Assembly (NCBI GenBank): GCA_016186395.1
Contig: JACPLU010000006.1
Span: forward strand, 7,948-71,947
Direction: 5' to 3'
Source: Parcubacteria group bacterium
GTDB lineage: Bacteria > Patescibacteriota > Minisyncoccia > 2-02-FULL-40-12
Length of the DNA stretch: 64,000 bases
How positions within the stretch are numbered: position 1 is the first letter of the stretch; each line of letters starts with the position of its first letter. Under the pieces are notes generated by a model, which was not told where the DNA came from, did no database searches, and was given only the letters and a program-made list of their open reading frames with translations. Of the stretch, positions 3,759 through 17,326 are shown in pieces. Made by a program: the position numbers and the translations under genes.

Positions 3759-5555
3759 TTAATTAGTCACCAATTCTTTCTTCAACAACTCCTCTGCAAC
3801 TTGTGGATTGGCTTTGCCTTTGGTTTCTTTCATTACTTGACCGACAAGAAACTTCAAGGACTCCTGCTTACCTTTTTTATAATCTTCAACTGCTCTTTGA
3901 TTATTGGCAATAACATTTTTAACCGCGATTGTAAGCTCCCCCGAATCTGAAACCTGACCCAGATCTTTTTCTTTCATAATTTGTTCGGGATGCAATCCGG
4001 TTTCAGTCATTTCTTTTAATATAACCTTTGTGGCCGAAGAAGAAAGTTTTTTGTGGAAAAACATAACCATTAACTCGGCAAAGGCTTCCGGTTCAACTTT
4101 TATACCTGACAAATCTTCCAATTCGCTGGCATCTTTCATATTGAACAACACCGGAAATTCAGTAATTATAAAATTGGCCGCAAGCGCATGAAGCCTGCCC
4201 AGCAAATGTTTTTCATCAGAGAATTCTTTGACACTTCCACTTTTCAAATGTTCAACTTTAGCTTCTGAATCAAGTTCTGTGGCAACTTTTTCGTAATAAT
4301 CGCCCAAATGTTTCGCTTTGGTAAAAATTTCAATATCCCGCTCAGGCAGATTATACTGCTTTTTAAATCTATCACGCCTTTGCTGAGGTAGTTCTGGCAG
4401 ACTGACTAATAAACCGTCCACATCAATCTTAGTTGGCGGCACCCCCCCCTTTCTTTGAGAATCTTTTTCAATATTTGAGAATTCATTGGAAATAACCGCT
4501 ACGCTTTCATCACTAGCTTCTTTGAGAAGTTCACGAGAGAAAGAGGGGGGTCCTCGCCTTTGTAGCTTTTCGCTTATGCTCAAAAACAAAGGCGGGAGGT
4601 CCGGCTCCGGGAAATATCTATAATCGTGAGCTTCTTCTTTTGATCTTTGACTAACCGTTACACCTCTTACTTCGTCCCAACCTCTGGTTTCTTGAATAAC
4701 CCGTTCGCCACTATCTAAAAGCTCGCTTTGACGTTTAATTTCATATTCCACCGCTTGCATTGCTACTTTTATAGAGTTCAAATTTTTAATCTCCACTTTT
4801 GTACCTAATTTTTGATTTTTGATTTTTGATTTTTGATTTGAAGAAGTTAATATTTCGCTAAGCGAAATATTAACTTCGACACGCATTTGACCCTTTTCCA
4901 TATTTGCATCAGAAACGTTCAGATAACGTAAAATTAACTGAAATTCCTCGGCAAATTTTTTAACCTCGTTACCATTCTCTAAATCCGGTCTTGTTACTAA
5001 TTCCATTAACGGAACGCCGGCACGATTATAATCGACCAGCGAAGCTGGTCGCCCCGAGCCTGTCGAGAGGCTTTCATGCAAAAGCCTGCCCGCATCTTCT
5101 TCTAAATGAATGCGCTCAATTCTGATGCGCTTAACGTCTAAAGGCGAACGACTAAAGCCAGAGCTATCAATAGCTTTAGTCTTTAGACTTTCGTTGTTAG
5201 CCTTAGTCTTTAGACCTTGGTCATTAGACAGTATCTCTAAATAGCCGTCACGACATAACGGTTTTTGATACTGACTTATTTGATAGCCCTTTGGTAAATC
5301 AGGGTAAAAGTAGTTCTTTCTTTCAAAAAAAGATTCGTCTGCAATCTGGCAATGCAATGCCAAGCCAGCTTGAATCACTTTTTTCACAGCCTCCTGGTTT
5401 ATGACCGGCAATGTCCCTGGATGACCCATACAAATGGGACAAACATTAATATTTGGATGCTTTTCATCCGAATCATTTAAAGAATCGCAAAACATTTTAG
5501 TCTTGGTTTTAAGTTCAGCATGAATCTCCAGGCCGATTGTTGGTTTATAATTCAA
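3759..5555 (-). CDS. gatB: Asp/Glu-tRNA amidotransferase subunit B, expanded to 598 aa by four in-frame insertions
   Basis: N-terminus MNYKPTIGLEIHAEL...CPICMGHPGTLPVIN, plus RIERIHLEEDAGR and DYRYFPEPDLPP motifs. Confidence 0.9.
   Translation of the reverse strand: MNYKPTIGLEIHAELKTKTKMFCDSLNDSDEKHPNINVCPICMGHPGTLPVINQEAVKKVIQAGLALHCQIADESFFERKNYFYPDLPKGYQISQYQKPLCRDGYLEILSNDQGLKTKANNESLKTKAIDSSGFSRSPLDVKRIRIERIHLEEDAGRLLHESLSTGSGRPASLVDYNRAGVPLMELVTRPDLENGNEVKKFAEEFQLILRYLNVSDANMEKGQMRVEVNISLSEILTSSNQKSKIKNQKLGTKVEIKNLNSIKVAMQAVEYEIKRQSELLDSGERVIQETRGWDEVRGVTVSQRSKEEAHDYRYFPEPDLPPLFLSISEKLQRRGPPSFSRELLKEASDESVAVISNEFSNIEKDSQRKGGVPPTKIDVDGLLVSLPELPQQRRDRFKKQYNLPERDIEIFTKAKHLGDYYEKVATELDSEAKVEHLKSGSVKEFSDEKHLLGRLHALAANFIITEFPVLFNMKDASELEDLSGIKVEPEAFAELMVMFFHKKLSSSATKVILKEMTETGLHPEQIMKEKDLGQVSDSGELTIAVKNVIANNQRAVEDYKKGKQESLKFLVGQVMKETKGKANPQVAEELLKKELVTN
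5170..5232. repeat. cluster of short palindromic repeat units (TAGTCTTTAGAC) lying in-frame inside gatB
   Basis: tagtctttagac at 5176-5187, cttagtctttagacc at 5201-5215, cattagac at 5221-5228. On the minus strand these encode LKTKANNESLKTKA. Confidence 0.7.
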
Positions 5556-14715: not shown

Positions 14716-15696
14716 TCATTTTGAGTCATTATTACCCTTTAATTTTACCAGATTTTGTATATAAAAACAATGCTTAAAGCATAGTCTTGAGTGGATAATT
14801 TTAAGTTTTAATTTAATCGTTTCTATACTTTTATTTATTTCCACTCTTTTTAACATCCTTCTCTTAGTGGCTGTTCTCAACACTCTATGGTCTGAAAAGT
14901 GTACCCAACCAAGAAAATCAATCCCGGAATTTAAGGTTTTAATTGATACTTTATGAGGATGTAGCTGTAACCCAAGCCTATTTTGTAAAAAACTACTAAC
15001 TTGTGGCAATAAATCTAAAAGCCAATTCTTATTTTGTGAAAGAAAAACAAAATCATCAGCATAACGAATATAGTATTTAACTTTTAATTTGTGTTTTACA
15101 AACTGATCAAATTCATTCATATAGATATTTACTAATAATTGAGAAGTTAGATTACCAAGAGGCAGACCAATACCAAGATGAATTAAATAAAAACTAGAAA
15201 TAATTTCATTTAATAACTCTATAATATTTGGGTTTGAAATATATTTTTTTAAAATAGCAAGTAGAACTTGATGATCAATATTGGCAAAGAACTTTTTAAT
15301 ATCGCATTTTAAAACCCAGACTGTTTTTGTATTATTTTTTGATTCTTTATAAGAAAAATCTCTAAATCTATTAATTGCTTTATGAGTTCCTTTATTCAAT
15401 CTGGATGAATATGAGTCAGCAATAAATGTTTTGTCGAAAAATGGATAAAGTTGACGATAAATTGCGTGATGAAGTAATCTGTCTCTTACTTTAGCTTTAT
15501 GAATGCTTCTTGGTTTTGGATCAGAGATATTAAATGCTTGATACTCTCCGTGCTTGTAGATATGATTAGTTAAATCGTGATGTAAAGATAAAATATTATC
15601 CATTAGATTTAACTGAAATTCTTGAACATCTTTTCTTTTTCTTTTGCCTTTGATAAATTCTTTCCAGGCTTCAAGTAAATTTTCCAAACTAACCAT
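14716..15696 (-). CDS. diversity-generating retroelement (DGR) reverse transcriptase
   Basis: RT motifs are all present: LENLLEAWKEFIKGKRKRKDVQEFQLNL at the N-terminus, LKCDIKKFFANIDH, LPLGNLTSQLLVNIYMNEFD (the DGR-type [IL]GxxxSQ where group II introns have QGxxxSP), and YIRYADDFVFL. At 326 aa it has no maturase or endonuclease domain. Confidence 0.85.
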   Translation of the reverse strand: MVSLENLLEAWKEFIKGKRKRKDVQEFQLNLMDNILSLHHDLTNHIYKHGEYQAFNISDPKPRSIHKAKVRDRLLHHAIYRQLYPFFDKTFIADSYSSRLNKGTHKAINRFRDFSYKESKNNTKTVWVLKCDIKKFFANIDHQVLLAILKKYISNPNIIELLNEIISSFYLIHLGIGLPLGNLTSQLLVNIYMNEFDQFVKHKLKVKYYIRYADDFVFLSQNKNWLLDLLPQVSSFLQNRLGLQLHPHKVSIKTLNSGIDFLGWVHFSDHRVLRTATKRRMLKRVEINKSIETIKLKLKIIHSRLCFKHCFYIQNLVKLKGNNDSK

Positions 15697-15764
15697 TTCT
15701 TCGAAACTATGACAAAATTCAATTCTTTTACGCCCCCCCCCCCAGCAGCAGTAGCAGCACCTCT

Positions 15765-16112
15765 TTGCCTATTCTTCAGAAACTGATTGTGGTTTACAAA
15801 ATTTGGCATGGTTATTTACCTAGATTCTCAAAAGATCATCGCTATACACTAGGTTTTAAAATTGACTCGCTCTTTGTTGAGGTAATCGAAACCCTCCATC
15901 AAGCACAGTATATTTTTTGGAGACAAAAACAATCGTATTTGACTAAAGCTTCATCAAGACTAGATACGCTAAAATTCTTTCTCCAAATACTTTGGGAAAT
16001 AAACGGTATTGAAAATAAAAAGTATATTCATCTTTCTAAGCATATAGAAGAAATCGGAAAAATGCTTGGCGGATGGATAAAAGAAACAAATTTAAAAAAC
16101 CAAACCCTCTAA
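15765..16112 (+). CDS. avd: DGR accessory variability determinant (Avd)-like four-helix-bundle protein, on the opposite strand from the RT, TR and target
   Basis: 115 aa. YLPRFSKDHRYTLGFKIDSLFVEVIETL and the C-terminal IGKMLGGWIKETNLKN resemble Bordetella-phage bAvd (YPIAQSIPRKHGVAREMFLK... / VGRILGSWIARVNRKG). The template repeat starts 24 nt past its stop. Confidence 0.65.
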   Translation: MPILQKLIVVYKIWHGYLPRFSKDHRYTLGFKIDSLFVEVIETLHQAQYIFWRQKQSYLTKASSRLDTLKFFLQILWEINGIENKKYIHLSKHIEEIGKMLGGWIKETNLKNQTL

Positions 16113-16135
16113 TAAAGAGGGTGGAAATAAGCCAG

Positions 16136-16262
16136 TTGCGAGGAACCACGAGACGATCATTGGAGTTCCAATCATTGTCGAGCCTATTGAAGTTCAAGAT
16201 CCATTCGTCATCGTTCCAGTTCAGATACGGAACGTACCAATTGCCGTTCGAGTCCTGCCATT
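16136..16262 (-). repeat. DGR template repeat (TR), sense strand = minus
   Basis: 127 bp. It matches 16553-16679 at 104 of 127 positions; all 23 mismatches are at plus-strand T (sense-strand A) in this copy. Confidence 0.85.
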
Positions 16263-16472
16263 ACGTACAAAATGCCATCTGTACCACTGTCCTTCGAATT
16301 ATCTTAGGACTGTATCTTATTGGGGATCTTTAAATCCTCTAGCATTCTGAACCAAGTAGCTTTATTTTTTTAGAAATCTGAAAAGATTTCGGAATTGGAT
16401 CGCTTAAAACTTGTTTAGTCGTAAGCTAATTGATCTACTTTCCAAATCATAGTATATCAAAAATATAAAAAA

Positions 16473-16506
16473 ATGCCCGACAGGTTTAACAAACCCTGTC
16501 GGGCAT
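16473..16506 (-). promoter_or_regulatory. perfect 12-bp stem hairpin about 45 nt downstream of the VR/target stop codon (DGR retrohoming hairpin candidate)
   Basis: atgcccgacagg-tttaacaaac-cctgtcgggcat. Confidence 0.55.
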
Positions 16507-16548
16507 AGAGCCAAGGGATCCAAGAACCAAGAGTTCAAGGATCCTTAA

Positions 16549-17097
16549 CTACTTGCGAGGAACCACGAGACGATCACGGGAGTGCCAAGCACGGCCGAGC
16601 CTATAGAAGCGCAAGACCCATCCGCCAACGCGCCAGTGCAGATACGGAACGTACCAACGGCCGTCCGAGCCCTGCCAAATGGTGCCCGGAAAAACCAGGT
16701 AGTACTTCCGAAGTTCTTTTGAAATCTTGCTTTGGTTTTCCAAAAGCCACTCGGCATCTTCCTGGCCGTAGTTAGCGTTAAACTCTCTCCTGGCTCGAAG
16801 TACCATCTCTTCGCCGTTAACATAGGTCTCACCCTCTTTCAGGAACGAGATCCCATCGACGGCAGAGAAAATACGATGCGGAACACTCTCTAGAAGCGTC
16901 CAGCCTTCTTTGCGCATGTCACGCTTGAAGGTGGCCACGATAGGGCCGAAGCGACCCTCAATGGCAAACTGGAGATGTACCTTGAGCTGAAAGGGGTCAA
17001 ATGGGTAACCGCTCGGCTGCCTCATCTGACGCTTTATCTCCCAGAGTTGACCGTCCAACTCTTGGTAGAGATCGCCTGCGACCATGATATTGGCCAT
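16549..17097 (-). CDS. DGR target protein (182 aa) carrying the variable repeat in its last ~43 codons; no signal peptide
   Basis: The C-terminus TIWQGSDGRWYVPYLHWRVGGWVLRFYRLGRAWHSRDRLVVPRK is encoded by the VR. The VR abuts the TAG stop. Confidence 0.8.
   Translation of the reverse strand: MANIMVAGDLYQELDGQLWEIKRQMRQPSGYPFDPFQLKVHLQFAIEGRFGPIVATFKRDMRKEGWTLLESVPHRIFSAVDGISFLKEGETYVNGEEMVLRARREFNANYGQEDAEWLLENQSKISKELRKYYLVFPGTIWQGSDGRWYVPYLHWRVGGWVLRFYRLGRAWHSRDRLVVPRK
16553..16679 (-). repeat. DGR variable repeat (VR)
   Basis: Counterpart of the TR. The first 24 nt (ttgcgaggaaccacgagacgatca), next to the stop codon, are invariant and GC-rich, consistent with an IMH-like element. Confidence 0.85.
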
Positions 17098-17171
17098 GAC
17101 GATTTTCCTCCGTTAAACAAATTTCCTATGAAATTTGTTTACTTGCTGTTTGATTTTGGTTCAGCCTTTGC

Positions 17172-17222
17172 TTTGCCACAGCAGAAAGTGGCCCGCATAA
17201 AGTCACTTTCTGCTGTGGCAAA
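17172..17222. promoter_or_regulatory. perfect 19-bp inverted repeat hairpin between the DGR target start and the upstream gene
   Basis: tttgccacagcagaaagtg - gcccgcataaagt - cactttctgctgtggcaaa. Confidence 0.5.
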
Positions 17223-17326
17223 ATTATCATAAAATCGCTTTATAAATGTACTATTTCTATACCACAATTATACCATATATAACATAACTACGCAAGGTTT
17301 TAAAAAATGGCTTAAAAAGAGTAATT

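Follow-up and report, generated by a model that had tools for sequence, protein, structure and literature searches.

A Parcubacteria diversity-generating retroelement with a covarying RNA scaffold around its template repeat and a conserved simple repeat of variable length between avd and the reverse transcriptase gene

Here, we describe a locus in a 64,000-nucleotide stretch from a Parcubacteria group bacterium (assembly GCA_016186395.1, contig JACPLU010000006.1, positions 7,948 to 71,947 of the forward strand), hereafter the window, whose first letter is position 1. The locus comprises a small target gene that ends in a variable repeat (VR), a template repeat (TR), a gene for an accessory variability determinant (avd) and a reverse transcriptase (RT) gene, and its features are listed in Table 1. 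Taken together, these features very probably constitute a complete, recently active chromosomal diversity-generating retroelement (DGR) of the clade found in the candidate phyla radiation (CPR, or Patescibacteria), arranged as target-TR-(avd)-RT, for which we propose an RNA-based mechanism. Features shared across the family were assessed in a comparison set of about 90 related loci.

Base-by-base comparison of the TR and the VR revealed a gap-free, collinear match of 127 bases at an offset of 417, interrupted by 23 mismatches. At every one of these positions the TR has T on the plus strand, corresponding to A on the minus (sense) strand, and the other TR bases are unaffected. Read on the plus strand from TR to VR, the changes are 11 T>C, 8 T>G and 4 T>A. 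With 35 of the 127 TR bases being such adenines, the chance that all 23 mismatches fall on adenines is 7e-17 (hypergeometric). The outermost mismatches, at 16261-16262, lie at the 5' edge of the TR/VR homology, and a conservative TR core of 125 bases (16136-16260) retains 21 mismatches and gives p = 1e-15. In a related cassette, L003, the positions equivalent to 16261-16262 hold AA in the TR and non-A bases in the VR, and the 127-bp boundary is therefore reasonable. The VR is in frame and forms residues ~140-182 of the 182-aa open reading frame (ORF) 16549-17097(-), ending within its last sense codon, and the TR, which contains nine AAY codons, places 33 of its 35 adenines at codon positions 1 or 2. 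The final 23 nt of the two repeats are identical, and the sequences diverge immediately past CGCAA, with an imperfect hairpin and a terminator found 3' of the VR only, an asymmetry that may correspond to that between IMH and IMH*. An adenine-tolerant scan of both strands found no further VR in the whole 64-kb window. An earlier sequence-only reading of this DNA had claimed a collinear 127-bp pair with 23 differences, all at coding-strand TR adenines, and a VR closing a 182-aa ORF next to its stop codon; the base-by-base alignment bears out each of these points.

The RT found its top match in the PDB by far in 8ub7_A (139 bits), a 328-aa RT chain present in nine entries, of which residues 14-284 align to RT residues 3-285; group II or retron-type RTs reached 72 bits. 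We take 8ub7_A to be the RT of the Bordetella phage (bRT), an assumption that draws on the chain length and the series of entries. At E <= 1e-60 the RT matches more than 7900 database proteins; of the 120 best matches listed, most are ~65-74% identical to it. An identical protein at NCBI (P0122) carries the label 'group II intron reverse transcriptase domain-containing protein'. Two other identities considered for this part of the locus were rejected. The group II intron maturase model TIGR04416 gave a partial match of 146.6 bits, far below its cut-off of 300, and Rfam returned no intron RNA in 15600-17300, the sole stretch searched for one, which takes in the RT 5' end, avd, the TR, the VR and the target; the retron RT model NF038233 reached 60.5 bits against a cut-off of 235, and Rfam returned no retron RNA in 15600-17300 or 16080-16480.

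The reading frame of the RT stays open upstream of its first ATG. This in-frame extension, RKRIEFCHSFEE, resembles the N-termini of relatives, which read MLGGGHKRIVFNHSFE... or MKIQLxHxFED... and precede an NLL.AW motif by ~16 aa, and it contains no in-frame ATG, GTG or TTG over 15697-15732. Counted from ATG 15696, the window RT is ~11-17 residues shorter than its relatives and the solved RT. As a separate observation, a Logan contig from run SRR12113422 (L101), compared with window positions 14843-16123, differs at a single base from 16123 to 15098, while past 15098, over the last third of the RT, it shows 76 differences in ~250 bases; this divergence reflects either recombination of the RT or an assembly chimera joined across a conserved part of it.

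The avd gene is encoded by the plus strand, the RT, the TR in its sense orientation and the target all being on the minus strand, and the avd product matches Pfam bAvd with 55.5 bits (cut-off 40). The same avd orientation and the same cassette order of target, TR, inverted avd and RT recur in five related loci (L003, L013, L015, L017 and L018), each of which carries its own adenine-specific TR/VR pair; one of them, L003, is 73% identical in nucleotides to the window over 2 kb. Across related loci more broadly, a VR was detected in 23, of which 19 show no non-adenine mismatch and 6-17 adenine mismatches over a 72-nt probe. The sequence-only reading had described the locus as a full cassette, with a 326-aa RT bearing the DGR-type LGNLTSQ motif and an Avd-like gene beside the TR, the VR and the target. 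All of these components are indeed present, Avd passing the Pfam cut-off and narrowly missing that of NCBIfam.

Two further observations concern avd and Avd-like genes. Across 74 loci, codon 1 of avd (window 15765-15767) is a conserved leucine, encoded as TTG (32), TTA (8), CTG (8), CTT (7), CTA (4) or CTC (3); in about half of the loci this is a Leu codon unable to start translation, and no canonical start lies at or just before it. In addition, L003 (4924-5289) and L005 (4321-4683) have small genes of the 23S_rRNA_IVP / four-helix-bundle (Avd-like) type, distinct from the avd of the DGR itself and located 0.7-1.7 kb upstream of the target-family gene.

DGRs are enriched in CPR bacteria (PMC8144416, PMC5758913), where the TR-(avd)-RT layout, termed architecture B3, accounts for 90% of elements but hardly occurs in other groups (Wu et al. 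2018, PMC5758913). Roux et al. 2021 (PMC8144416) report a DGR clade that is confined to the CPR and encoded by cells, with targets that typically lack a transmembrane segment or recognisable domain. The window matches the B3 class (PMC5758913), or clade 2 of Roux et al. 2021 (PMC8144416), in gene order and reverse-strand avd, and shares with it a Parcubacteria/CPR host, a location on a cellular chromosome and a small target without transmembrane segment or known domain. Between the window and the CPR B3 DGRs we find no essential difference: an inverted avd is normal for CPR DGRs, and the DGR itself is unremarkable within a very large known group. On one flank lies a 701-aa ORF that, by eye, we take to be gyrB-like, and on the other flank are, among others, a gene resembling those of cytidylyltransferases and a pheS-like gene for a class II tRNA synthetase. 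These housekeeping neighbours on both sides indicate that the DGR is chromosomal.

The target has the same sequence as MBI2627098.1, annotated as hypothetical in a Parcubacteria metagenome-assembled genome, which fits the earlier description of the host as a small-genome bacterium. Neither Pfam nor NCBIfam assigns the target to a family; a profile search against PDB sequences returned no match at E <= 10, and a Foldseek search against the PDB returned none that was significant. Its relatives number at least 150 proteins, mostly of ~180 aa, and all of the organism-named ones come from CPR/Patescibacteria or an unclassified bacterium. Within this family the VR retains its scaffold residues (W, L, F, G, RLVRPRK), and the positions encoded by template AAY codons vary freely. 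The maximum 19-residue Kyte-Doolittle mean is 0.9 and no hydrophobic segment is present; the target is therefore predicted to be soluble, without a signal peptide or transmembrane segment. AlphaFold2 modeled the whole protein as an N-terminal helical hairpin followed by an alpha/beta domain, with a predicted local distance difference test (pLDDT) score of 88, and residues 60-182 alone with a pLDDT of 95.4. In these predictions, the C-terminal domain models as a very divergent C-type-lectin-like fold.

The target family is used by ~6 of the 80 related DGRs sampled. Its genes also occur alone in varied housekeeping neighbourhoods with no RT within 5-6 kb (L001, L004 and L005) and beside remnants: in L012 (5767-5892) an RT fragment and a weak match to the RNA motif described below, and in L014 (5825-5934) the RNA motif without RT or avd. 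These lone and remnant copies suggest repeated loss of the DGR or targeting in trans. The base composition of the target gene is anomalous, with 54% GC and a third-codon-position GC content (GC3) of 0.62 outside the VR, compared with 37% GC for the window and a GC3 of ~0.30 for neighbour genes; the RT gene has 27% GC and a GC3 of 0.20. High GC is also found in the target homologues of six other genomes, with or without a DGR. Locus by locus, the targets in L001, L003, L004, L005, L012, L013 and L014 have a GC3 of ~0.6-0.8 against ~0.3 for their neighbours and ~0.2-0.4 for RT genes.

An initial alignment of the target-to-avd stretch of the window and the five cassettes named above (six cassettes in total) revealed an unexpectedly high conservation upstream of the TR, with compensatory changes. 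The RNA consensus, built from 20 sequences, is a three-way junction of helices P1, P2 and P3 flanked by the invariant single strands AAAAAUGAAGMUACUUGGU, AAUAMGAUACA and GUGG. Among these 20 sequences, 95.4% of the cells are paired, compared with 79% in shuffles and 33-51% with slid partners, and 19 of 23 pairs show changes on both sides; the observed values were reached by none of 500 shuffles. A larger alignment, fitted to a covariance model of the motif built from the 20 sequences (R1), gave 95.6% paired cells and double changes in 20 of the 23 pairs. R1 was found in 66 of 96 sources, where all but one of the matches lie upstream of the RT on the RT strand, at a distance of ~680 nt where the RT start is known. 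In the window its sole significant match, 16254-16372(-), abuts the TR, and the next match reaches 14 bits with E = 0.41. No Rfam 15 family matched the RNA in 15600-17300 or 16080-16480 beyond chance level, the RT-associated motifs included, and no described counterpart of the three-way junction was found in the searchable literature. One of the RT-associated motifs of Weinberg et al. 2017, RT-10, sits in the spacer of the Bordetella phage element (PMC5737381).

A fourth helix, P0, connects the two sides of the TR. Nine bases just 5' of the UACUUGG segment pair with the linker immediately 3' of the TR, ~240 nt away, in the combinations GAAGC/GCUUC, GAAGA/UCUUC, GAAGU/ACUUC, AAAUAAAGA/UCUUUAUUU and AAACGAAG/CUUCGUUU, and the variable position of the helix carries the compensatory types C-G, A-U and U-A. 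With a linker alignment made without reference to pairing, 85.3% of the P0 positions pair, compared with 76.4 +/- 1.2% after shuffling of partners (0 of 1000 as high) and 42-55% with slid partners. We regard the covarying RNA scaffold around the TR as solid.

Beyond P0, the hairpin and U run that follow the TR linker look like an intrinsic terminator; the position of this hairpin is kept in the other five cassettes with differing stem sequences, and its loop contains the avd stop codon. On the 5' side, 22 of the 43 pairs predicted by RNAalifold for the 5' domain show compensatory changes among the six cassettes. An extended -10-like box of the form TGnTAnAaT is present in five of the six cassettes, with TATAAT alone in the sixth, ~7 nt before the first upstream domain, and a generic promoter scan does not call this box. 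We infer from the sequence that the box is the promoter of a TR transcript, and that the transcript would be an independent minus-strand RNA of ~350 nt comprising, in order, the 5' domain, a P0 strand, the junction, the TR, the second P0 strand, the hairpin and the U run.

Between avd and the conserved N-terminus of the RT lies a homopolymer, G11 on the RT strand. A G tract occupies the same site in all six cassettes, with lengths of 6, 9, 9, 10, 11 and 13 bases (the last in L013), and in 61 of 71 further related loci, with lengths of 6-12 bases and a mode of 10; in three loci (L028, L043 and L050) it is replaced by (GT)n. Related loci totalling 410 kb contain 64 G/C runs of at least 8 bases, all but two of which (62) are at the avd-RT site. 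The only other such run in the window, a C8 at 4442-4449, lies inside a 598-aa ORF, 3759-5555(-), which by eye is presumably gatB-like. An assembly error was rejected as the simple explanation of G11, because the tract recurs from locus to locus and has the same length in the independent assembly L101. Within each of the two pairs of independent assemblies the tract lengths agreed, a search for near-identical loci differing in tract length returned identical pairs only, and no variation within populations was seen. The conserved repeat of variable length between avd and the RT is solid as an observation.

The relation of the tract to the two flanking reading frames differs among the loci. In the window the conserved RT frame includes it, and it precedes avd codon 1 by 9-21 nt, a placement in which its length would alter a reading frame or promoter spacing; a GTG at 15760 would be in the RT frame with G10 or G13, and an ATG at 15809 with G9 or G12. 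Most relatives have 17-30 nt between the tract and the RT ATG, so that the tract is non-coding there, and on the opposite strand it precedes avd codon 1 by ~9 nt. On the avd side, 29 of 66 loci have an upstream ATG whose frame continues through the tract into avd, a share not significantly above one third, and a tract length in frame with avd is independent of the type of codon 1 (Fisher p = 1.0). Judged by these counts, which show no frame preference, the C run may or may not encode prolines of a longer Avd starting at the upstream ATG.

Evidence on recent diversification came from a population variant. At 90% identity, the target clusters with one other protein, P0121, which differs from the window protein by Y149C and G159V and is encoded on Logan contigs L006 and L007, from runs SRR12113420 and SRR12113422. 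The 4530-base L006 contig differs from the window at three bases: two of them, 16652 and 16622, lie in the VR and are both opposite TR adenines, and the third lies 15 bases from the contig end. The TR of L006 is identical to that of the window. With two of the three differences at TR-adenine positions of the VR and an unchanged TR, recent diversification of the VR is supported, as judged from consensus assemblies rather than reads. The description of the cassette as 'apparently active' in the sequence-only reading agrees with this consensus-level result, which is the opposite of an invariant VR accompanied by a varying TR.

Several findings weigh against a complete and recently active DGR. The RT lacks a canonical start in frame with its conserved N-terminal ~12-17 residues, its first ATG (15696) has no Shine-Dalgarno sequence, and the candidate GTG at 15760 is out of the RT frame with G11. 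Against the NCBIfam model DivGenRetAVD, Avd scores 79.3 bits, 0.7 below the cut-off of 80. The evidence of activity consists of two substitutions between consensus assemblies and not of read-level heterogeneity; the promoter, the RNA ends and the priming are all inferred. The state of the RT start would fit a DGR that has recently become inactive, with G11 or the loss of a start codon truncating or silencing the RT and the VR recording past mutagenesis. With G11, which is present in two independent assemblies, the GTG-initiated frame ends after 10 codons, and a start at ATG 15696 drops ~12-17 conserved residues whose equivalent in the Bordetella RT belongs to an N-terminal extension contacting Avd; decayed relatives also exist, L012 with an RT fragment only and L014 with the RNA motif and no RT. 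We nevertheless consider inactivation improbable. The population differences at TR adenines point to recent activity, the RT, avd, the TR, the RNA motif and the target ORF show no other damage, the NLL motif is also where several relatives of the RT are called from in databases, and about half of the related loci are likewise out of frame, so that being out of frame does not simply mean dead. As for an ordinary 127-bp duplication that diverged randomly beside an unrelated group II intron or retron RT, a notion to which the NCBI protein name and the partial TIGR04416 match lend some colour, we hold it to be almost certainly wrong. The mismatch spectrum, with 23 of 23 differences at TR adenines (p = 7e-17), already refutes it, the intron and retron models stay far from their cut-offs (146 bits versus 300 and 60 versus 235), Rfam gives no group II intron or retron RNA in 15600-17300, and the same arrangement with A-specific pairs recurs in many loci.

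Two readings of the G tract were compared. Phase-variable contingency loci with poly-G/C tracts are known from Neisseria, Campylobacter and the Bordetella fim promoters. The window family shares with them a G/C run of ~8-13 bases in an AT-rich genome at a gene 5' end or promoter, a length that differs among related loci and the occasional substitution of another simple repeat; it differs in that the tract lies between two divergent retroelement genes. By this likeness, the tract might be a slipped-strand contingency switch that stochastically turns the DGR machinery on and off, G11 keeping full-length RT off or low and G10 or G12 restoring an in-frame start, a reading drawn from sequence that we put forward only tentatively. 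The tract could instead be a fixed cis element, such as a segment of the leaders of the two divergent mRNAs, a site bound by ribosomes or by a protein, or a barrier separating divergent promoters, with neutral length differences. This we judge to be somewhat probable, and at least as likely as the switch: the tract is non-coding in most relatives, the 29 of 66 loci in frame with avd do not exceed one third significantly, and the lengths are identical in the pairs of independent assemblies, although there are only two such pairs. The (GT)n replacement in three loci speaks against a fixed element, since the conserved property then looks like proneness to slippage rather than sequence, and so do the span of lengths from 6 to 13 and the position of the tract within the conserved RT frame in window-like loci. 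No report of a DGR with a homopolymer, poly-G or phase variation was found in the searchable literature.

Table 1. Positions of the features of the locus in the window (for minus-strand RNA and leader elements, coordinates may run 5' to 3')
Feature	Position	Strand	Remarks
RT gene of the DGR	14716-15696	-	326 aa from first ATG; Pfam RVT_1, E = 2e-25
RT motif YADD	15052-15063	-	residues 212-215
RT motif LGNLTSQ	15139-15159	-	residues 180-186
Open in-frame extension of the RT frame	15697-15732	-	conserved in relatives
Homopolymer	15733-15743	C11 on +, G11 on RT strand	between avd start and conserved RT N-terminus
avd	15765-16112	+	115 aa from TTG; opposite strand to RT
Hairpin and U run directly 3' of TR linker	16094-16122	-	hairpin 16122-16104; terminator scan, folding
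P0, 3' strand	16125-16132	-	GCUUAUUU; linker after TR
TR	16136-16262	-	sense strand; base-by-base TR/VR comparison
Structured RNA directly 5' of TR	16254-16372	-	covariance model R1, 116 bits, E = 3e-22
P1	16353-16342 with 16276-16265	-	12 bp
P2	16337-16324	-	4 bp
P3	16310-16289	-	5+2 bp
P0, 5' strand	16368-16359	-	pairs with 16132-16125; 8 bp, one bulged A
5' domain of presumed TR transcript	16373-16445	-	stem-loop with compensatory pairs, then small hairpin
Extended -10-like box	16451-16459	-	TGATATACT; alignment of six cassettes
Target intrinsic terminator	16475-16504	-	12-bp GC-rich stem, then U run
Imperfect hairpin 4 nt past target stop	16516-16544	-	beside VR only, not TR; CCTTGG-like quasi-palindromes
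Target gene	16549-17097	-	182 aa; predicted N-terminal helical hairpin and C-type-lectin-like domain (residues ~60-182)
VR	16553-16679	-	TR/VR comparison; 16652 and 16622 vary between population assemblies
Target leader	17107-17231	-	-10-like box, hairpin, AT-rich palindrome, Shine-Dalgarno
Target Shine-Dalgarno	17111-17107	-	GGAGG
AT-rich palindrome	17140-17115	-	in leader
Leader hairpin	17221-17173	-	18-bp stem
Target -10-like box	17231-17223	-	TATGATAAT

The sequences bordering the target gene have structural features of their own. Past its stop codon, the hairpin 16544-16516 and the terminator 16504-16475 together have a folding z-score of -7.9, and the TR is without both; the 3' flanks of the VR in most of the 23 related loci with a detected VR carry CTTGG/CTTGA repeats. 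The quasi-palindromes of these flanks (window 16516-16548) pair with T-T mismatches, and their CUUGG also occurs within the invariant single strand UACUUGG of the RNA motif. Upstream of the gene, many family members have a long hairpin with a stem of 15-19 bp, located 3' of a -10-like box and 40-70 nt ahead of the target start; it was seen upstream of the targets in L003, L004, L005, L012, L013 and L014 with unrelated stem sequences, and it may be a stabilising 5' stem-loop of the target mRNA. The perfect AT-rich inverted repeat AAACAAATTTC ATAG GAAATTTGTTT at 17115-17140, just upstream of the target Shine-Dalgarno sequence, is not conserved in the other loci examined and may serve as an operator or form a hairpin in the leader.

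The Bordetella phage element depends on two structures around its TR, the 'cPRT Stop' duplex formed by a segment upstream of the TR with the spacer downstream of it, and an Avd-binding stem-loop; such elements have been predicted in 207 of 278 DGRs, CPR included, from the 40 nt preceding and the 100 nt following the TR (bioRxiv 10.1101/2023.10.23.563531). By analogy, P0 and the hairpin 3' of the TR are plausible counterparts of this duplex and stem-loop, and the hairpin in particular may correspond to the Avd-binding one. The three-way junction of the window family, in contrast, lies beyond the 40-nt upstream stretch used in that study (bioRxiv 10.1101/2023.10.23.563531). The DGR of Bordetella phage BPP-1 (mtd-avd-TR-brt) and that of the window both mutate adenines, encode Avd and an RT bearing the I/LGxxxSQ motif, and have the VR at the C-terminal end of a target with a C-type-lectin fold (in the window, a predicted model). 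They also share a hairpin after the VR and not the TR, and RNA segments flanking the TR that pair together. The two differ in the placement of the RNA: downstream of the TR the window has ~45 nt (linker, hairpin and U run) where BPP-1 has a 140-nt spacer, and the large structured part lies upstream of the TR in the window, as the ~110-nt three-way junction and a further 5' domain. In addition, the Rfam RT-10 motif of BPP-1 has no match at the window, and the window DGR is chromosomal, with a target that is not a tail fibre, whereas the BPP-1 DGR resides in a phage.

Combining these features, we propose the following sequence of events. A minus-strand RNA of ~350 nt would start at the extended -10 box near 16455 and end at the hairpin and U run 16122-16094. 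Within it, P0 would join the segment 5' of the three-way junction to the linker 3' of the TR, enclosing the junction and the TR. The RT and Avd may then bind this scaffold and prime complementary DNA (cDNA) synthesis at the 3' end of the TR, as suggested by the Bordetella phage element. The TR would be copied with random nucleotides opposite adenines, synthesis would stop at the structured 5' part, and the cDNA would replace the VR of the target gene. The direction of homing would be set by features found 3' of the VR alone, since only the VR has a stop codon, a quasi-palindromic hairpin and a terminator after it. The outcome would be cells with different binding surfaces on a C-type-lectin-like protein that is cytoplasmic or non-classically exported. 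As a hypothesis, G11 between avd and the RT probably modulates the amount of full-length RT, and perhaps of Avd.

As one more example of a well-documented class, the DGR matters little by itself. The conserved folded RNA and the variable G run of this DGR family, however, seem not to have been described previously. The scaffold of three-way junction and clamp helix offers a concrete model of template positioning in CPR DGRs, which make up a very large share of the DGRs in nature and have an arrangement unlike that of the only element studied structurally. The conserved avd-RT repeat suggests that mutagenesis may be switched stochastically, which bears on how the cost of a DGR is limited; if this were true, a hypermutation system would be gated by a second hypermutable repeat. 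Finally, the target family, soluble, without signal peptide and of anomalous GC, provides a tractable candidate for learning what CPR cells diversify and why.

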